Assembly (NCBI GenBank): GCA_964582965.1
Contig: CAZOUN010000005.1
Span: 1,376-65,375 of the forward strand
DNA from: an uncultured Anaerolineales bacterium
Lineage (GTDB): Bacteria > Chloroflexota > Anaerolineae > Anaerolineales > UBA11858
Reading direction: 5' to 3'
Length of the DNA stretch: 64,000 bases
The notes under the pieces are model-generated. The model searched no databases. It saw only the letters and a program-made list of their open reading frames with translations, and was not told the origin of the DNA. Shown here piece after piece: positions 38,077 through 47,064 of the stretch. The position numbers and the translations under genes are program-made. How positions within the stretch are numbered: the stretch's first letter is position 1; each line of letters starts with the position of its first letter.

Positions 38077-38331
38077 ATGAAAACACAAGAAAATAGGGAA
38101 AAATGGATTGAATCACTGTATAAATTACGGCTCCAGAACCTCACCGCGACCTTCTTGGAAGCTCTGGGTCCAATGAATCTGCTTGGCGCCCAGCTGGTCT
38201 ATCTAAGCCAACCAGTTTTGTCCTCTTTCGTCCCTAAAGAACAATCCCAGGACTTCGCAAAGATTTTAGAAGATCCATCCGAAACGGTGTTATTTATCGA
38301 GGCACTCAGAAATTACGAACCAACAACCTAG
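38077..38331 (+). CDS. Hypothetical small protein (84 aa), first gene of the 38-47 kb operon
   Basis: ORF starts about 12 nt after an extended -10 element (TGcTATACT, 38057-38065) with no SD, so the mRNA may be near-leaderless. One hydrophobic segment (LLGAQLVYLSQPVL). Its stop abuts the next gene. Confidence 0.45.
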   Translation: MKTQENREKWIESLYKLRLQNLTATFLEALGPMNLLGAQLVYLSQPVLSSFVPKEQSQDFAKILEDPSETVLFIEALRNYEPTT

Positions 38332-38346
38332 TTGGAGGAATTATCT

Positions 38347-39129
38347 GTGTCTGCTACTGGCTTCACGGGAATAGTGGTTATTGTACTTTTTGTTGGTTTG
38401 ATGGTCTTTTTTTCGTTCATTAATAAAGACCGGAAAATCCATAATATTCGCCCAATACCCGCCTATGACAAAATCATCCAGGAGATCAATGTTGCCGTCG
38501 AAGATGGTACTCAGCTGCATATCTCCCTGGGCAGAGGGGGTATTACAGGTCCCGAATCAGCTGCCGCACTGGCCGGATTGGGAATCCTAAAACAGATCAT
38601 TGAAAAATCATCGGTTTGCGATCTTCCCCCAGTTGCCTCCACTGGCAGTCCGGTAATCTCTATTCTGGCGCAGGACACGATCAAAGGAAGTTCAAAAGCC
38701 CTCAGCGCATCTGATCACATCAGAAATCCATCAGGTGAGCTGATCGGCGTCACTCCTTTTTCTTATGCTGCTGGAACTTTAAGCACTATCCGGGACGATA
38801 ATGTCTCTGCAAACATCCATACCGGATGGTTTGGAAACGAAATCACCTGGATCACAACTGCCGGGGAACGGCAAAGCAGCCCTACTATCGCCGGAACTTC
38901 CCAGCTTGCCGCTCAAGCAGTCATCTATGCCAGCGCTTCTGACCCCCTGATCGGTGAAGAATTATTCGCTGGCGGAGCTTACCTCGGTGCAGGAAAAATG
39001 CACCAGGCCAGCATATCAGCCCAGGATGTCGTTCGCTGGATCATCGTTTTTATCATCCTGGCCAGCGTTTTTCTGAATATCTTTGGAATTGACACCTTTA
39101 TTGAAAATATCCTGGCAGGTTCAAAGTGA
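38347..39129 (+). CDS. Hypothetical bitopic membrane protein (TM, ~210-aa domain, TM)
   Basis: GTG 38347 lies 8 nt after GGAGG (38334-38338); an in-frame TTG at 38332 is the ORF maximum. N-terminal helix GIVVIVLFVGLMVFFSF and C-terminal helix WIIVFIILASVFLNIFG. Confidence 0.6.
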   Translation: MSATGFTGIVVIVLFVGLMVFFSFINKDRKIHNIRPIPAYDKIIQEINVAVEDGTQLHISLGRGGITGPESAAALAGLGILKQIIEKSSVCDLPPVASTGSPVISILAQDTIKGSSKALSASDHIRNPSGELIGVTPFSYAAGTLSTIRDDNVSANIHTGWFGNEITWITTAGERQSSPTIAGTSQLAAQAVIYASASDPLIGEELFAGGAYLGAGKMHQASISAQDVVRWIIVFIILASVFLNIFGIDTFIENILAGSK

Positions 39130-39772: not shown

Positions 39773-42700
39773 ATGAATGAGATCCTCTGCCCAACCTGCG
39801 GAAAACCCAATACAGATGATCATAATTTTTGTGATCATTGTGGTGCTCCCCTGTTCAGCGTGGATCCACTTCCGCCCGACAGCCCCTCCCTGAGAGATGA
39901 TCTCTTTGATGATAACGAAGATAAAACCCCAGTTCAATCCCTGTATCCACAGGATGAAGGCTCGCGGTTAGACAGTTTGTTATCAGATGAAGATCCCCTT
40001 CAAGATCCGCCCCATCTATCGGATTCCCTGGATGATTCAGCCAGGCTGGACGATCTGATTCCCGCCCCGGAACCTTCAGCTGAATTCCCAGTGGAGGATG
40101 ATATTCAACCAATTGGCGAGTCTGATGCTTCCTCCAGATTGGACGATTTCTTCACTACAGATGATCCGTTTATAAGCTCCGAAGAAGAAAAGGAACCGGA
40201 TCCTCCAGCTTTCGATCCTTTTCTTGAACCTTCTGCACGTGATGAGCTATTGGGAGAAGAAACTCCAGCAGAAAAGAACGGTGGAGCGTGGGAATACCTG
40301 ACAGAGCCATCCACTGAAAACAGCTTAACAGAAAAAAACCTACCGATTGAAAAACCTGCGGACAACCTGGATTTTCTTAGCTCGCTTGCCGATGACAACA
40401 ACCTCGCAGAGGAACGCCTTACCCAAAAGTCCAGCGAGGAGGAGGACATCCTTACTACGCCATCTGCTGAAGAAGCACCTCTTATAAAAGAAGACCCCGT
40501 ACAAGACCCTGTTGATGGATGGGATTTCTTAACCACTCCTGGAGCGGAAGAAGAACCCAAAAGACCAAAGGAATCTGACCGGGATACAGCCGGAGAACTG
40601 GAATTTTTAGCAGCACTGAATCGTGAGGATGGCGCAGCTGGAGCAGAACAACCCACAAAACCAGAACAATCCAACCAGGATACAGCTGGGGAATGGGATT
40701 CCCTGACTTCATCATCTGCTGAAGAATCACCCATTAAAAAAGAAAAACCCGTACAAGACCCTGTTGATGGCTCGAATTTATTCACCACTCCTGGATCGGA
40801 AGAAGAACCCATAATAACAGAACAAACCGACCAGGACTCAACTGGGGAATTGGACTTTTTAGCGGCCTTGGATGGAGAGGAAAATGTTTCCGGGACAGAC
40901 CACCCTGCAGGCGGTCAAGCAGGGGAATTGGATTTCTTAACACCAGATCCAGAAATTGAACCAGCGCCAATAGGTTTTCGCCCTGACCTTTATGATGAAG
41001 ATGAAGATCCTCTCCCGGAATTTGGCACTCCTGGTTTCAGTGAGGATTCCGGTTGGTTAGACATGCTCCAAGACCCGGATTCCAGGGAACCGGCCGTAGA
41101 CGCCCCGCCAGAGCCCACTAAACCTCAAACTGATTGGTTGGATAAGATCAAGAGGTTGAATAAAAGCAGCGATCTGGTAGATGAAGACTCATCCTTCCCG
41201 GATTGGCTTTCTGTGTCAGAAAAACCAGCAGAAGAAATTCCTGAGGAAGTAAAGCCAGTGGAAGATCATGAGCCAGTTTCTGATAATGAAGAGGCAGCTC
41301 CCGCCAGCGATTTGCCCGCCTGGCTCAAAATTGATGGGGATGATGAATCCCTGAACGCTTTCTTGCGAAAAAAAGACCGCACAAACGAGGAATATAAACC
41401 CTCCATTATAAGAGGTATTACTGATAAGCTCCCTCAAGAAGGTAAGGAGGATGAACCAGCCTCTGGGTTAAGCGATTCCCAACAAATCAAGTTCCCATCC
41501 TGGGCAGAAGAAAAAAAGAAAGCTGCTGAGAAAGTCTCTCAAGATCCGGAATTCTTAGCCGGGCAAGAAGAAGGATCTGACCCGATCGTTGACCCATTCC
41601 AGGTTGAGGAAGAAGAATTTTTTGACGATCTCTTCAGCGATGAGCTTCCTGGCTGGCTAACATCTGCATCTTCTGATTCTGCGTTTGAAGATTTTGAAGA
41701 GGAATTATCCCAAGGTGAATTGCCAGGTTGGGTCGAAGCCATGCGCCCCGTCGTTGAATCGAATGATGCCACTGGACTCTCCGAGGATGAAGATTATATA
41801 GAAAATTATGGACCGCTGGCCGGAATCCCCAGTGTGCTGCCAGCTGAAGCTGACGTTGCATTTGATCCTGAAAAAGCCGCCAAGAAACCACTGGATCTAT
41901 TTGCTTCAAAATCCCACCAGGATTATGTCAACGTACTAAAGAAACTCATCACGGATGAGAATAAAACAAAAACCATCCTAAAGCCCGCCCCGGTTGCTAC
42001 CCAAAGGGTTCTGCGCTGGTTGATTGCCCTCATCATGCTGGTAACAACAGCGGGAACGGTCATCTTTGGTGGAGTTATCGAGACAGACCCTCCCACCTCA
42101 GCCCAGATTGTGAACTCGGGGTACGGGGCTTTATATGAACAGATCGAAAGTCTATACGATGGCCAGTCTGTATTGATTGCTTTTGATTACCAGCCTGCCT
42201 CTGCCGGAGAGCTGCACATCGCAGCTGCTGGTGTTGTCGACCACTTGATGAAACAAGGCACTTATCTGTCTTTTATTTCAACTCAGCCCACCGGGCCTGC
42301 TCTGGCAGATCATTTCCTGGCCACAACCCAGGAAAAACATGGATACATTCATACCCAGCAATATATCAACCTGGGATATTTACCCGGTGAATCAGCCGGA
42401 TTATTAAGTTTCGTTATAGCACCGAAGAAGATCATCCCCCTTGCATTTGACGGCAGCAACGCCTGGGGATCTCCCCCTTTATTGAATGTAAACTCAATTA
42501 ATGATTTTGCTATGGTTCTGGTTATCACAGACGATCCAGAAACAGCAAAAATATGGATCGAACAAGTTGGCACGATCCTGGAAGATACTCCTTTGAATAT
42601 GGTAGTCAGCGCTCAGGCTGAGCCCTTGATCCAGCCTTATTTTCGCTCATCACCTCAACTTCTCAAAGGATATGTTTCTGGGATTATTGACAGCGTGAAT

Positions 42701-42865
42701 TATGAACAACTGCTAGACCGGCCAAATCTGGCCACTGCAGCTTGGCTTCCATTCAATTTGGGTATCATTATCACGGTTGGAACAATATTTATCGGCGGGT
42801 TGGCAAATGGCGTTTTATCTCTGTTTTCCCGCCATAGATCCAGGACTGCAGGAGATGTTAAGTGA
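39773..42865 (+). CDS. Zn-ribbon protein with a ~700-aa acidic repeat-rich linker and a C-terminal TM-domain-TM module
   Basis: N-terminus CPTCGKPNTDDHNFCDHCGAPL (a 4-Cys ribbon). A long D/E/P/S-rich region carries recurring aromatic motifs. TM at LRWLIALIMLVTTAGTVIFGG, then a ~270-aa domain, then TM at LGIIITVGTIFIGGLANGVLSLF. Confidence 0.8.
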   Translation: MNEILCPTCGKPNTDDHNFCDHCGAPLFSVDPLPPDSPSLRDDLFDDNEDKTPVQSLYPQDEGSRLDSLLSDEDPLQDPPHLSDSLDDSARLDDLIPAPEPSAEFPVEDDIQPIGESDASSRLDDFFTTDDPFISSEEEKEPDPPAFDPFLEPSARDELLGEETPAEKNGGAWEYLTEPSTENSLTEKNLPIEKPADNLDFLSSLADDNNLAEERLTQKSSEEEDILTTPSAEEAPLIKEDPVQDPVDGWDFLTTPGAEEEPKRPKESDRDTAGELEFLAALNREDGAAGAEQPTKPEQSNQDTAGEWDSLTSSSAEESPIKKEKPVQDPVDGSNLFTTPGSEEEPIITEQTDQDSTGELDFLAALDGEENVSGTDHPAGGQAGELDFLTPDPEIEPAPIGFRPDLYDEDEDPLPEFGTPGFSEDSGWLDMLQDPDSREPAVDAPPEPTKPQTDWLDKIKRLNKSSDLVDEDSSFPDWLSVSEKPAEEIPEEVKPVEDHEPVSDNEEAAPASDLPAWLKIDGDDESLNAFLRKKDRTNEEYKPSIIRGITDKLPQEGKEDEPASGLSDSQQIKFPSWAEEKKKAAEKVSQDPEFLAGQEEGSDPIVDPFQVEEEEFFDDLFSDELPGWLTSASSDSAFEDFEEELSQGELPGWVEAMRPVVESNDATGLSEDEDYIENYGPLAGIPSVLPAEADVAFDPEKAAKKPLDLFASKSHQDYVNVLKKLITDENKTKTILKPAPVATQRVLRWLIALIMLVTTAGTVIFGGVIETDPPTSAQIVNSGYGALYEQIESLYDGQSVLIAFDYQPASAGELHIAAAGVVDHLMKQGTYLSFISTQPTGPALADHFLATTQEKHGYIHTQQYINLGYLPGESAGLLSFVIAPKKIIPLAFDGSNAWGSPPLLNVNSINDFAMVLVITDDPETAKIWIEQVGTILEDTPLNMVVSAQAEPLIQPYFRSSPQLLKGYVSGIIDSVNYEQLLDRPNLATAAWLPFNLGIIITVGTIFIGGLANGVLSLFSRHRSRTAGDVK
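40464..40950 (+). repeat. In-frame tandem duplication (2 x 252 bp, i.e. 2 x 84 aa) inside the Zn-ribbon protein gene
   Basis: ctgctgaagaa...cccgtacaagaccctgttgatgg...accactcctgga.cggaagaagaaccc occurs at 40464 and again at 40716. The protein copies are SAEEAPLIKEDPVQDPVDGWDFLTTPGAEEEP... and SAEESPIKKEKPVQDPVDGSNLFTTPGSEEEP... Confidence 0.8.
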
Positions 42866-43571: not shown

Positions 43572-45329
43572 ATGGATAAAACAACAATTGCATCAAAATC
43601 AGTTATAGCAGTTGATATCGGAAGTACCATCACCCGATCATTGTTTTTTGATGTGGTGAGTGGTAAATACCGCTTTGTGGCCGTGGGGAGTGCACCAACA
43701 ACAGCAGGGGTACCTCACTTTGATGTAACAGAGGGGATTTGGCGGTCATTGGAAGAACTCCAATTTATAACCGGCCGGAAATTATTAAGCGGAAAAGATG
43801 GCGTGATCATCCCCAGCACCCCTGATAACCAGGGAGTTGATATCATGGTTGCGACCATGTCTGTCGGCAAACCAATTTCTGTTGTCACTGTAGGGCTGCT
43901 GGATACCGTCTCACTGCAAAACGCCCGGCATCTAGCCCAAACAACATATGCGGATATCATCGCCGAGATATCACTGAACGATCGCCGGACGTCATCTGAC
44001 AGGATAAACCTGCTAACCAGAAAACGACCCGAATTGATCATTATTACCGGGGGCACAAATAACGGTGCCTCAGAGTCTCTTCTCAGCATCCTTGAGAGCA
44101 TTGGTCTGTCCAGTTATATGCTGGATGAAAGTCAGCGCCCCCATATCCTATTCACGGGTAACGAACAGCTCCAAGACGAGGTCAAATCCGGGCTGGCCAA
44201 GATCAGCAAATTAAGAGTTGCTGCCAATATCCAGCCTGTACTCGGGAAAGAAAATATCCACCCCGCCCAGAAAGAGATTAACGAAGTATATAAAGAAATA
44301 CGAAAAAAACAGACCGGTGGGCTCCGGGAAGTCATCTCTTGGACTGAGGGAACATTCACATCAACAGCATCTGCTTTTGGTCGGGTAATCCGATTCCTGA
44401 GTGAAAAATATGAGCCAGAAAAAGGCGTTCTGGGAGTTGATATTGGATCCGATGCAACTATTATGGCGGCAGCATTTAACGGGGAAGAAACGCTTCGAGT
44501 ATTTCCCGGTTTAGGCGTTGGATCTGGTTCTGGTGGTGTGATCGAAAAAAATTCCCTGGATTTGATTAAACGCTGGATGCCAATTGAGCTGTCCGACCAG
44601 GAGATCCAGGATTATATATATAATAAATCGATATATCCTCGTTCACTTCCTCTAAATACAGAACACCTTGAGGTCGAGCTGGCTGTAGCCAAACAGGCTA
44701 TAAGATATGCGGCAGAACAAACTATCCCTGGACTGCCAAAACAGCTGGGAGCCGGGGGTACTTTACTGCCTTATATGGAGCCGATCATTGGGTCTGGACG
44801 GATCTTGACCCTGGCACCTAAACGCTATCACCCGCTGTCTGTTCTACTTGACGGCCTGCAACCAACCGGTGTAACAACCCTGGCCCTGGACCAAAACGGC
44901 TTGTTACCAGGATTAGGGGCTGTGGCCGAGGCCAACCCCTTGTTAACCGTTCAGGTGATAGAATCGAGCACTTTTCTGAATCTGGGCACGATTATTGCAC
45001 CTTTAGGAATTGCCAGACCTGGAACCACCATTCTCAGGATTCGGGTCAACCGGGAAGATGGAAGGTCATTTACTCGAGAAATAAAATATGGGTCCCTCAC
45101 AATTCTTCCAGTGGATCTTGGTGAAAAAGTCTCACTGCACCTTCGCCCTCTCAATCGTTTTGATGTTGGCATGGGAGGTCCTGGAAAATCTGGCAAGGTG
45201 AATGCCGTTGGAGGCGTCTTTGGTATTGTGATCGATGCCCGGGGACGTCCACTTCAGTTTTCGCTTGACCAGGAGAAAAACAGGAAACGGAATGAGGTCT
45301 GGAGAAAAACATTCAATAAGTATGAATAG
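43572..45329 (+). CDS. GlmL/MutL-like two-lobed ASKHA (actin/Hsp70-fold) ATPase-like protein
   Basis: Phosphate-1-like VIAVDIGSTITRS, ELIIITGGTNNGA, a second-lobe GVLGVDIGSDATIM and PIIGSGRIL. The duplicated D-I-G-S-x-x-T pattern matches what I recall for the glutamate-mutase-associated MutL/GlmL family. Confidence 0.65.
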   Translation: MDKTTIASKSVIAVDIGSTITRSLFFDVVSGKYRFVAVGSAPTTAGVPHFDVTEGIWRSLEELQFITGRKLLSGKDGVIIPSTPDNQGVDIMVATMSVGKPISVVTVGLLDTVSLQNARHLAQTTYADIIAEISLNDRRTSSDRINLLTRKRPELIIITGGTNNGASESLLSILESIGLSSYMLDESQRPHILFTGNEQLQDEVKSGLAKISKLRVAANIQPVLGKENIHPAQKEINEVYKEIRKKQTGGLREVISWTEGTFTSTASAFGRVIRFLSEKYEPEKGVLGVDIGSDATIMAAAFNGEETLRVFPGLGVGSGSGGVIEKNSLDLIKRWMPIELSDQEIQDYIYNKSIYPRSLPLNTEHLEVELAVAKQAIRYAAEQTIPGLPKQLGAGGTLLPYMEPIIGSGRILTLAPKRYHPLSVLLDGLQPTGVTTLALDQNGLLPGLGAVAEANPLLTVQVIESSTFLNLGTIIAPLGIARPGTTILRIRVNREDGRSFTREIKYGSLTILPVDLGEKVSLHLRPLNRFDVGMGGPGKSGKVNAVGGVFGIVIDARGRPLQFSLDQEKNRKRNEVWRKTFNKYE

Positions 45330-45356: not shown

Positions 45357-46415
45357 ATGATCAGTAAAGTAAAACATATTCATTCACTCACAAGCATAAA
45401 ACGGGAACGGGTCTTACCCGTCGCCGGTCATGTCCTTGTTCGCCGGATGCAAAAAGTGTCCCCCACAGATGTGATCGTGGTTGCTCCTCTCGCCCCCCAA
45501 TTCATTCTGATGAATATTTCCCAGGGCCTAAATGTTAATGCAGCTCGGGCAGATGAGCTCCTTCAACGTCAGGCTGGTGAAGATCTGGTACAGGGAGATG
45601 TCATTGCAGGACCAGTGGGGATGTTCCAGCGCGTTGTTAGGGCACCCCAGGCTGGAGTCGTGAGGATAGCGGGTGAAGGAAAAGTATTATACGAGATCAC
45701 TTCTCCCGACTTCGAATTACAGGCGGGCATGGAAGGTACAATCACCAATATCATCCCGGAACGTGGCGCTATCATAGAGACAAAAGGAGCTCTCATCCAA
45801 GGTGTTTGGGGAAACGGGAAGATAACCTACGGCGTAGTACAGCCTATCAGCAATGATATGCTCCAGGAACTGGTTGTAGAACAGCTCAATATTGGATTTC
45901 GGGGAGCAATCATCACTGCTGGATTCTGCAGAAAACCAGAAGTGCTGGAAGCTGCTGGTATCGTGCCAATCAAGGGATTGATCCTGGGAAGCATGTCCTC
46001 AGTACTAATACCACTGGCTAAAAAGATGGATTACCCCATCATGGTCATTGATGGTTTCCGTGAAACACCTATGAACAAAGCCGCGGAAGCAATTTTGATC
46101 AATAACAAAGATAAAAATATCGCCTTGAACGCCCAGGAACTTGACACCAATCAGGGGAACTACCCTGAGGGTATTATTTCACAATCATCGACTTCTGAAC
46201 CAGAGTTACCTTCAGAAGCTGAAACCCTCAAAGTGGGTAAAAAGGTTATCATTATAAATGGACCGCAAGCCCCACAAATCGGAGAAATTGATAGAATAAT
46301 ATCTGGAAAACAGGTTCTGGCCAATGGAGTTGAAACCAAGCTTGCAGAAATCAAGCTTGCCAATGATAAAAGTACAGTTTTACCGATGACGAATTTGGAA
46401 ATTCTTAAGGATTGA
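45357..46415 (+). CDS. Hypothetical soluble protein (352 aa) with barrel-like N-terminal region and KOW-like C-terminus
   Basis: No TM segments. The N-terminal segment GDVIAGPVGMFQRVVRAPQAGVVRI resembles a barrel-sandwich hybrid. The C-terminus KVGKKVIIINGPQAPQIGEIDRI resembles a KOW motif. Confidence 0.55.
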   Translation: MISKVKHIHSLTSIKRERVLPVAGHVLVRRMQKVSPTDVIVVAPLAPQFILMNISQGLNVNAARADELLQRQAGEDLVQGDVIAGPVGMFQRVVRAPQAGVVRIAGEGKVLYEITSPDFELQAGMEGTITNIIPERGAIIETKGALIQGVWGNGKITYGVVQPISNDMLQELVVEQLNIGFRGAIITAGFCRKPEVLEAAGIVPIKGLILGSMSSVLIPLAKKMDYPIMVIDGFRETPMNKAAEAILINNKDKNIALNAQELDTNQGNYPEGIISQSSTSEPELPSEAETLKVGKKVIIINGPQAPQIGEIDRIISGKQVLANGVETKLAEIKLANDKSTVLPMTNLEILKD

Positions 46416-46467: not shown

Positions 46468-47064
46468 ATGGGAATGAATGATTTTGAAGATATGGATTTC
46501 GAAGAAATTGGGAGTGAAGAAACTATCTCAACCAGCAGAGGTTCAAATCGAACCTTCCTGATCGTTGCAGGTATTCTTGGAGGTATTCTCCTGATTGCTT
46601 TGCTGGCGATTGCTGCCTATGCTATCCTGTACCTGCCTGGCCGCGATACTGGCCAACAGACCCAGGTTGCTGAGATCAATGCGACCAATACAGCAGTAGC
46701 AGAGGAAGCCCAGCTGACGGCGATAGCCAAACAGGTGACAATGACCCCCACCTTTACGGCAACACTACCGCCTACGAATACTCCTACCATGACCCCCAGC
46801 AGCACATCAACTCCCGTTCTGGCGCCCACCAACACACCGGTGCCGATCGATGGTACACCTGATCCGGCCGCCACAGAAACGGTTGCCGCTCTGCTGACTC
46901 AACAAGCAGGAGGTGGAGGTGGTGCTACGCCTATTCCGACAGCAACCGCACTCCCGGATACGGGTTTCGCGGACGATTTCGGTGTTCCGGGGCTGGTCCT
47001 GGTCGCAGGGATATTAATGGTAATCATTATCCTCAGCCGCCGCTTAAGAACATCAACCAACTGA
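46468..47064 (+). CDS. Pro/Thr-rich cell-wall protein with an N-terminal signal anchor and a C-terminal LPXTG sorting signal
   Basis: The C-terminus ALPDTGFADDFGVPGLVLVAGILMVIIILSRRLRTSTN is an LPXTG motif followed by a hydrophobic helix and a basic tail. The mid-region is PT-rich (TLPPTNTPTMTPSSTSTPVLAPTNTPVP). A GAGGAGAGAG SD precedes the start. Confidence 0.7.
   Translation: MGMNDFEDMDFEEIGSEETISTSRGSNRTFLIVAGILGGILLIALLAIAAYAILYLPGRDTGQQTQVAEINATNTAVAEEAQLTAIAKQVTMTPTFTATLPPTNTPTMTPSSTSTPVLAPTNTPVPIDGTPDPAATETVAALLTQQAGGGGGATPIPTATALPDTGFADDFGVPGLVLVAGILMVIIILSRRLRTSTN

Follow-up and report, generated by a model that had tools for sequence, protein, structure and literature searches.

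The region analysed here, called the window, is a stretch of 64,000 nucleotides from an uncultured Anaerolineales bacterium (assembly GCA_964582965.1, contig CAZOUN010000005.1, positions 1,376 to 65,375 of the forward strand). At window positions 39773-42865 (+) lies an uninterrupted open reading frame (ORF) of 1030 codons, which encodes a Zn-ribbon protein of 1030 residues with seven short tryptophan-centred motifs, the PxWL boxes, in a long acidic linker. The pattern of conservation argues that this linker is probably a multivalent short-linear-motif scaffold, carried as a cytoplasmic tether by a membrane protein of the bitopic-hairpin type. Such a scaffold is of a known kind; here it is bacterial and uses an undescribed motif. 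The original prediction, made from this stretch alone, had proposed a membrane-tethered docking scaffold with some 13 copies of one motif, and its interpretation is partly supported by the analysis reported below.

Core array and architecture of the protein

The core array was delineated from homologue alignments (first 120, then 69 sequences; identity down to 43%):

41048..41749, + strand: core array of seven ancestral W boxes, from residues invariant in 69 homologues. By residue, the boxes are SGWLDML (426), TDWLDKIKRL (453), FPDWL (475), LPAWL (514), FPSWA (574), LPGWL (625) and LPGWVEAMRP (650).

The seven box tryptophans (W428, W455, W478, W517, W577, W628 and W653) are invariant across the 69 homologues, and so are the prolines at position -2 of five boxes (P476, P515, P575, P626 and P651). 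Mean column identity is 0.51 over residues 421-660 and drops to 0-0.2 in the spacers between boxes. The box-containing segments of this protein include SSFPDWLSVSE, SDLPAWLKIDG, DELPGWLTSAS and GELPGWVEAMRPV, and a consensus box peptide is EEELPDWLKSLR. Two acidic-aromatic islands, ESLNAFLRKKD (525-535) and DPFQxEEEEFFDDLF (607-621), are also conserved between the core boxes. Four of the seven W boxes follow the strict form PxW[LMIV], whereas shuffling the linker 2000 times gives 0.17 such matches on average and never more than 2; the array is reduced compared with the 5-45 copies of most relatives.

The linker itself (residues 30-740, 711 residues) has a net charge of -134. In the AlphaFold2 model, computed with the 69-sequence alignment, most of residues 30-700 are disordered, with a per-residue confidence (pLDDT) below 50, interrupted by short islands. 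Helices are predicted at 455-464 and 525-535, and the islands reach pLDDT 52-63 within the otherwise disordered tail. All 13 strings quoted by the original prediction are present (starts 171, 198, 248, 274, 306, 358, 384, 426, 453, 476, 515, 626 and 651). Its own test, that the motifs should be conserved islands in a fast-evolving linker, came out positive for the six W motifs of residues 426-657, as well as for FPSWAE (574), a W box missing from its list along with three SRLD-type motifs (64, 90 and 121); the seven strings at 171-391 are poorly conserved in position. The idea of a single motif in 13 copies has to be abandoned: the strings fall into two classes, and the 171-391 set is restricted to the genus and stems partly from a 252-nt duplication. 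The general notion of a membrane-tethered multivalent motif scaffold is a fair reading, in view of the invariant tryptophans, the low-identity spacers and the recurrence of the box 5-45 times per linker across the phylum.

The other features of the protein are the following:

39788..39853, + strand: N-terminal Zn ribbon (CPTC...CDHC, residues 6-27), predicted cytoplasmic, from Pfam PF13240 and AlphaFold2 (pLDDT 76-84)
39962..40153, + strand: class A, three SRLD-type motifs (SRLDSLL at 64, ARLDDLI at 90, SRLDDFF at 121), from the alignment
40283..40945, + strand: class B, seven GEWDFL-type motifs at residues 171-391 (GAWEYL, NLDFL, DGWDFL, GELEFL, GEWDSL and GELDFL twice), from the alignment
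40450..40881, + strand: in-frame tandem duplication of 252 nt (84 codons), each copy with one W-type and one GEL[DE]FL motif, from a repeat search
41750..41992, + strand: conserved module next to the membrane, beyond the last box (VVES...EDEDYIENYGPLAGIPSVLPAE...), then an amphipathic helix at 713-729, from the alignment
42008..42085, + strand: transmembrane (TM) helix 1, residues 746-771, from hydropathy (Kyte-Doolittle maximum 2.27 in a 19-residue window) and an AlphaFold2 helix at 741-765
42086..42736, + strand: domain of about 217 aa, predicted to be extracytoplasmic and alpha/beta (Rossmann-like) in fold, more conserved than any other part of the protein, from AlphaFold2 and homologue searches
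42737..42826, + strand: TM helix 2, residues 989-1018 (hydropathy 1.91), then a short basic cytoplasmic tail up to the stop at 42865

The gene starts 2 nt past the stop of the gene for a 214-aa membrane protein, and its own stop overlaps by 4 nt the GTG start of the gene for a 234-aa membrane protein, so that it lies inside an operon whose genes are tightly packed. The ribbon is the sole Pfam match in the protein (PF13240, residues 6-27, 30.1 bits for a cut-off of 25), an NCBIfam scan gave no match, and the four cysteines C6, C9, C20 and C23 are conserved in at least 90% of the 69 homologues. The charges flanking TM helix 1 (+5 before, -2 after) place the N-terminus in the cytoplasm. After TM helix 2, the tail SLFSRHRSRTAGDVK has a charge of +3. 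By hydropathy and the positive-inside rule, both termini are predicted to be cytoplasmic. The two TM helices had been foreseen by the original prediction, which gave the domain between them about 270 residues instead of about 217. In the AlphaFold2 model this domain has pLDDT 75-95 and alternating beta and alpha elements, and it is conserved across Chloroflexota. Foldseek against the PDB returned generic Rossmann-like matches only (best E-value 4e-4, target-normalised TM-score at most 0.41), so that no function can be assigned to it. It resembles in layout the DUF6754 protein of the same operon (window 38332-39129, +): in both, a TM helix is followed by a domain of about 200 aa and a second TM helix, and the domain opens with a Y...E.I....DG....I.F-like beta-alpha unit. 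Homology between the two was considered and rejected, as BLASTP gave nothing significant.

Between the array and the membrane, the juxtamembrane residues Y675, E677, G680-I685 and P690-E692 are invariant in the 69 homologues. Among the Anaerolineales homologues the last box has the specialised form PxWLxAMRP, and about 20 residues further on comes a module GPLAG[LM]RGVLPAEP that they have in common. Both are found here, as LPGWVEAMRP (650-659) and YGPLAGIPSVLPAE (679-692).

The linker motifs thus form three classes, the SRLD type (A), the GEWDFL type (B) and the PxWL boxes (C). Class A, of consensus S-R-L-D-[DES]-[YLF]-x, is a genus-level class: its sites have an occupancy of 0.63-0.66 and an identity of 0.40-0.49, against a regional background of 0.24, and two relatives (P0044 and P0066) have 3-7 copies. 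Class B has the consensus G-E-W-D-F-L-[TD]-[SP] in long-form relatives, with 5-8 copies; the variant GELDFL is frequent in this protein, and P0044 contains five near-identical repeat units. This class sits in a lineage-specific, fast-evolving insert, and same-genus short-form homologues (640-880 aa) are without the GEWDFL array; in the alignment its sites range from 0.11 to 0.72 in occupancy and from 0.02 to 0.36 in identity. Class B has grown in part by tandem duplication, the copies at 40450-40629 and 40702-40881 being 79% identical with a spacing of 252. Tandem Repeats Finder, run on the ORF, reported nothing at its thresholds. Elsewhere in the genome, no protein contains class A or class B motifs in two or more copies.

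One could imagine that the tether is an entropic spacer or bristle, its aromatic motifs being accidents of composition, and residues 160-420, which align poorly (mean identity 0.15), look much as this would predict. The invariance of seven tryptophans in 69 homologues and the shuffle tests reject chance, however, and the same motif recurs in three classes of the phylum and in three different protein contexts. This explanation is scarcely credible.

The box across Chloroflexota and on other proteins

Fourteen homologues were fetched from other families of the order; their similarity is confined to the C-terminal 400 residues, at 26-37% identity. Relatives open with the same CPxCG...CxxCG ribbon, which stands at the N-terminus in 12 of the 14. 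Their linkers, of 177-986 residues, are very different in sequence, and almost every tryptophan in them lies inside the same box. The logo of these 207 W sites reads [DE][DE]-[LIV]-P(71%)-D(67%)-W-L(82%)-x-x-[LM]-R. The residue after W is acidic in about 2% of the sites, and positions +2 to +5 are often K or R in Anaerolineales. Each protein has 1-18 PxW[LMIV] matches (at least 5 in 12 of the 14), against shuffle means of 0.70 or less.

Across the phylum, a 19-position profile built from 126 boxes was searched in 121 Chloroflexota genomes; the C-terminal domain was matched (BLAST or HMMER) in 36 of them. In relatives across the phylum the same P-D-W-L box occurs 5-45 times per linker. A search of contigs for related loci reached same-genus genomes (MAGs) only. 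Representative carriers, named from exact cluster look-ups and from the names of protein-search matches, are:

Oscillochloris trichoides DG-6 (OSCT_2791): 1221 aa, 30 PxWL boxes, operon present
Herpetosiphon: 1508-1523 aa, 45 PxWL boxes, operon present
Thermogemmatispora carboxidivorans: soluble Zn-ribbon protein of 495 aa, 7 PxWL boxes, without the membrane genes
f28: 306 aa, without ribbon or linker, 0 PxWL boxes, operon present
f31, f38 and f41: ribbon and short linker, 0-1 PxWL boxes, operon present

In these sequences the copy number varies freely around a fixed motif, from 7 boxes in Thermogemmatispora to 30 in O. trichoides OSCT_2791 and 45 in Herpetosiphon. It follows from these carriers that the array is an accessory module which particular clades have gained or enlarged, on a machine that is older. 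The 1030-aa protein displays the five traits of its family, namely the ribbon, the acidic box linker, the terminal box with its GPLAG module, the TM-bracketed alpha/beta domain and the position in the operon. A homologue from the same class (genome G070, L093:8243-13972, -) has 1909 residues, only 3 PxWL boxes and a large insertion before the C-terminal domain. Databases name the relatives 'hypothetical protein', 'zinc-ribbon domain-containing protein' or 'glutamate mutase L', and full-text literature searches on the PDWL motif, DUF6754 (PF20539) and glutamate mutase L/GlmL (PF13941) found nothing relevant.

The box is also present on proteins unrelated to the scaffold. In a six-frame scan of the own genome, only one other protein has three or more boxes (C53:7640-10933; 1097 aa, 13 boxes). 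It is soluble, has no membrane segment and ends in a ComEA-like helix-hairpin-helix (HHH_3) and tetratricopeptide repeats (TPR); a separate gene for a 263-aa TPR protein lies directly upstream at C53:6769-7560 (pair C53:6769-10933; locus L042:1770-5931). This family, hereafter family 2, has a median of 12 boxes among at least 120 homologues, with the consensus EE-[ILV]-P-D-W-L-[QK]-E. In many relatives an N-terminal TPR domain is fused to the box protein, making a single protein of 1300-1900 aa, and two homologues are labelled 'FimV' by JGI. A third context is the ASKHA protein of the operon: in the Herpetosiphon clade (L083:11440-13620; P0265-P0274) it carries a disordered C-terminal tail of 140 aa with two conserved PxWL boxes, a DFSALRAEL helix and the basic-aromatic end KPKRGFFRRK. 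In Chloroflexales the ASKHA proteins lack boxes and have KRRGWFGKKK as their last residues. Both kinds of ending resemble membrane-targeting sequences.

The sharing of a motif by three unrelated proteins is the mark that a true recognition element with a common reader would leave. Could the reader be the membrane itself? P-D-W-L-x-x-L mini-helices would then dip Trp and Leu into the cytoplasmic leaflet and so keep the tether lying on the membrane surface. Both residues are well known from membrane interfaces, the K or R often found at +2 to +5 in Anaerolineales would suit such a contact, and so would the KRGFFRRK-type ends of the Chloroflexales and Herpetosiphon ASKHA tails. Nevertheless, acidic flanks and a net charge of -134 would be repelled by an anionic bacterial membrane, and the same boxes, with flanks even more acidic, are found on the soluble TPR/helix-hairpin-helix protein. 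A role as membrane anchors is thus most improbable.

From these observations we infer that the boxes bind a protein, and the following mechanism can be proposed. The Zn ribbon would lead into a disordered, strongly acidic cytoplasmic tether of about 700 residues, and the two TM helices would bracket the extracytoplasmic alpha/beta domain. The functional units would be the seven PxWL boxes, of ancestral consensus [DE][DE]-[LIV]-P-D-W-L-x-x-[LM], each probably forming a helix of one to three turns whose Trp and Leu fit into a pocket on a cytoplasmic partner. In this way several copies of the partner would be concentrated by the tether at a membrane complex built from the operon and comprising the DUF6754 protein, two polytopic membrane proteins, the ASKHA ATPase, the 352-aa protein and an LPDTG-sorted surface protein. 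This genus has a remodelled array: the ancestral boxes are down to seven positionally fixed sites, and two younger classes (SRLDD[YLF]x and GEWDFL) were added N-terminally, the latter by way of tandem duplication.

Candidate receptors in the operon and elsewhere

The operon has eight genes, in the order 84-aa protein (window 38077-38331), DUF6754 protein, 214-aa protein, 1030-aa protein, 234-aa protein, ASKHA protein, 352-aa protein and LPDTG protein. It is syntenic in all 14 genomes fetched from other families of the order, and its membrane genes and ASKHA gene recur across the phylum. Two of its products are candidate receptors:

43572..45329, + strand: GlmL/MutL-type ASKHA protein, 585 aa (Pfam PF13941, 1.2e-58)
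45357..46415, + strand: soluble protein of 352 aa with a KOW/SH3-like C-terminus (weak KOW match at residues 293-318)

The ASKHA gene is syntenic in every examined locus that reaches that far. In Foldseek searches, the nearest structures to its product are double ASKHA ATPases of the acetone-carboxylase and hydantoinase types; PilM, FtsA and DnaK come next, with low TM-scores. In Thermogemmatispora the gene of the seven-box protein immediately precedes the ASKHA gene ('glutamate mutase L') and one for a relative of the 352-aa protein, an arrangement that links the ribbon-box protein with both. The gene of the 352-aa protein is next after the ASKHA gene in Anaerolineales and Thermogemmatispora and unlinked to the operon in Chloroflexales and Herpetosiphon. 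Its absence beside the operon in the latter two was at one point held to exclude it as a receptor; this exclusion was dropped and the protein stays a candidate, because unlinked homologues exist in these genomes. Homologues were found in all array-bearing lineages tested, operon-linked or not. PDB sequence searches with the ASKHA profile and the 352-aa protein returned no relatives.

Outside the operon, the N-terminal TPR domain of family 2 (TPR-N) is present in most sampled genomes that have arrays of at least 6 profile matches: 8 of 8 in Anaerolineales, 8 of 8 in Chloroflexales, 4 of 4 Herpetosiphon-like and 5 of 5 Thermogemmatispora-like genomes, plus G054. Genome G000 itself has only 3 profile matches, yet contains both box families. 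The operon-bearing f28 (0/9) and f31 (0/2) are without both the arrays and the TPR family. Charge complementarity was tried as a receptor criterion and set aside as too weak to decide (the ASKHA protein, with an isoelectric point (pI) of 8.86, is the sole basic soluble product of the operon, and TPR-N has a pI of 5.8).

In our estimate, a TPR domain of the second PDWL-bearing family is a possible receptor, though a doubtful one, the operon ASKHA protein is somewhat unlikely, and the 352-aa protein is improbable. The outcome to which we lean most, itself a tentative one, is a receptor other than these three. The suggestion of the original prediction that the ligand could be an operon product stays one candidate among others: the same array sits on an unrelated soluble TPR/helix-hairpin-helix family encoded elsewhere, and in the modelling described next the boxes of the P0265 fusion reach pLDDT 45-66.

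Several points weigh against the scaffold reading. No binding partner has been demonstrated or confidently predicted. P0265, from Herpetosiphon, is a natural fusion of an ASKHA protein with boxes and served for a cis-docking test with AlphaFold2, judged on confidence values alone, not contacts, with an alignment of 30 sequences. The ASKHA body folds at pLDDT >90; the tail boxes W647 and W675 reach only 45-66, no better than the undocked boxes of the 1030-aa protein (52-63). This model gives no support for docking on the ASKHA protein; with confidence values as its only readout and so small an alignment, it does not amount to a strong refutation either. Concerning TPR-N, f38 and f41 have the operon and a homologue of the domain but no arrays, and the co-occurrence of arrays and TPR domains is confounded by shared ancestry and by the arrays of the TPR family itself. 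As to classes A and B, their function seems less secure, because they are genus-restricted and poorly aligned. Finally, Trp and Leu in an acidic spacer could self-associate instead of docking on a folded receptor.

If that were the case, the W-L boxes would be weak homotypic or heterotypic stickers between acidic spacers, driving self-association or condensates, with the TPR/helix-hairpin-helix family and the ASKHA tails as co-scaffolds. Stickers would readily explain a copy number ranging from 0 to 45, growth by tandem duplication, the presence of one sticker on three different proteins and the finding by AlphaFold2 of no docking site in cis. Against this, conservation covers positions -3 to +1 together with the acidic flanks and amounts to a defined peptide in which P and D are fixed, as is typical of pocket recognition, every box in this genus has its own fixed position and flanks, and the net charge of -134 would oppose homotypic association without a basic partner. 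We regard stickers as unlikely and favour a scaffold whose boxes dock on a partner.

The last gene of the operon encodes a protein of 198 aa (window 46468-47064, +) with an acidic N-terminus, a hydrophobic helix, a Thr/Pro-rich stalk, GGGGG, ALPDTG, a second hydrophobic helix and RRLR; this is a predicted sortase-type sorting signal. The only library match of this protein is a weak, low-complexity one to GltJ (E-value 3.4e-4, 19.8 bits against a cut-off of 450). In Herpetosiphon the same position, next after the ASKHA gene, is occupied by an LPDTS-sorted surface protein with two repeated segments (L083:13879-16659), followed by a Wzz/BY-kinase-like protein. Elsewhere in the own genome, one uninterrupted open reading frame of 10,138 codons spans C11:18567-48980 (+).

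Relation to known systems and significance

The FtsZ tail deserves consideration first. The conserved C-terminal peptide of FtsZ binds FtsA, ZipA and SepF, FtsA being itself an ASKHA protein. The boxes have in common with this tail an acidic residue, [ILV], P, x, an aromatic residue and [LM], on a disordered linker, and the operon encodes an ASKHA protein. It may be asked, therefore, whether the boxes mimic the FtsZ peptide (D-[IV]-P-x-F-[LM]-R) and bind FtsA or another receptor of FtsZ tails, thereby tying the complex to the divisome or titrating FtsA. The genome contains FtsA and two FtsZ paralogues, on C96 (L035:841-1959) and C15 (L036:1297-2505), with the C-terminal peptides NLDIPTFLRNRNRNR and PLDVPAFMRRRAYADISFGD; the first gene adjoins FtsA. 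SepF was not found in this genome, which is 82% complete. The two tails contain NLDIPTFLRNR and PLDVPAFMRRR, and the present protein contains DLPAWLK, then NAFLRKKDR. The pattern [DE][LIVMF]P.[WF][LM] has 19 matches in the open frames of at least 100 codons, including the 2 FtsZ tails, 2 in this protein (DLPAWL and ELPGWL) and 5 in the C53 protein; the pattern was, however, designed after seeing both sets, which makes the overlap partly circular. Moreover, the 126-box profile scores neither FtsZ tail even at E-values up to 1000, W is invariant in the boxes where the FtsZ tails have F, and the boxes are internal and repeated instead of single at the extreme C-terminus. In the TPR family the residues that follow the boxes are acidic, not basic. 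The operon ASKHA is GlmL/hydantoinase-like and not FtsA-like. FtsZ mimicry is quite improbable.

Docking on a dedicated partner has parallels in eukaryotes. Endocytic adaptors such as epsin, Eps15 and AP180 carry arrays of DPW, DPF, FxDxF and WxxF motifs that are read by the appendage domains of AP-2. As in these adaptors, many acidic-aromatic motifs of 3-5 residues lie in a long disordered membrane-associated tail, in variable copy number and on several unrelated scaffolds. The differences are that the system is bacterial, that the motif order is P-D-W-L and not D-P-W, and that there is no homology. The TPR domain of kinesin light chain reads tryptophan-acidic cargo motifs, [LM]-x-W-[DE]. Here too the motif is centred on Trp, with acidic flanks and in a disordered region, and a TPR family co-occurs with the arrays in the phylum. 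On the other hand, W is followed by Leu (82%) and preceded by P-D, the boxes lack the [LM]-x-W-[DE] core, and the TPR-N domain of family 2 is mildly acidic; it should be noted that the GEWDFL class does contain W-D, as the kinesin light chain motif does.

Among bacterial systems, PilM is an ASKHA ATPase that clamps a short cytoplasmic N-terminal peptide of the bitopic membrane protein PilN. The likeness resides in a membrane protein with a short cytoplasmic peptide and an ASKHA protein encoded in the same operon, and PDB entry 5eou is among the Foldseek matches. PilN, however, offers one peptide and no array, the sequences are unrelated, and in structure the ASKHA protein matches PilM only in a generic way (target-normalised TM-score about 0.4). 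The polar hubs HubP and FimV combine LysM, a TM segment, a long acidic repeat region and a C-terminal TPR-like FimV domain. They resemble the present case in using a very acidic, repeat-rich cytoplasmic region as a recruitment hub, with TPR-like modules here in the companion family, but Pfam finds no LysM or FimV domain in the 1030-aa protein, and the repeats, the topology and the operon differ. Finally, GltJ of Myxococcus has cytoplasmic Zn-ribbon and GYF domains, a linker and a TM segment. An N-terminal Zn ribbon and a low-complexity cytoplasmic linker before the membrane anchor, within a multi-protein envelope machine, are common to both, although Pfam finds no GYF domain in the 1030-aa protein.

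Multivalent short-linear-motif scaffolds are central to the organisation of eukaryotic cells, and few are documented in bacteria. Here the peptide is sharply defined and easy to synthesise, forms arrays of 7-45 copies and occurs in three independent protein contexts, and Oscillochloris, Herpetosiphon and Thermogemmatispora are cultivable carriers. As a more speculative proposal, for which we would claim rather less than an even chance, the PxWL box may be the recognition element of an undescribed docking code extending over the phylum, in which a single receptor, either the TPR domain of family 2 or the ASKHA ATPase of GlmL type, would read up to 45 boxes on at least three proteins and so build up a large hub in the cytoplasm, attached to an envelope machine specific to filamentous Chloroflexota, the motif classes turning over within genera like eukaryotic short linear motifs. 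The gene described here shows motif evolution under way, with ancestral boxes frozen at seven positions and new classes expanding by tandem duplication. Given that the envelope of this phylum is poorly understood and that the operon products are all annotated as hypothetical, DUF6754 or 'glutamate mutase L', the identity of the receptor would give a first functional handle on this conserved eight-gene operon.

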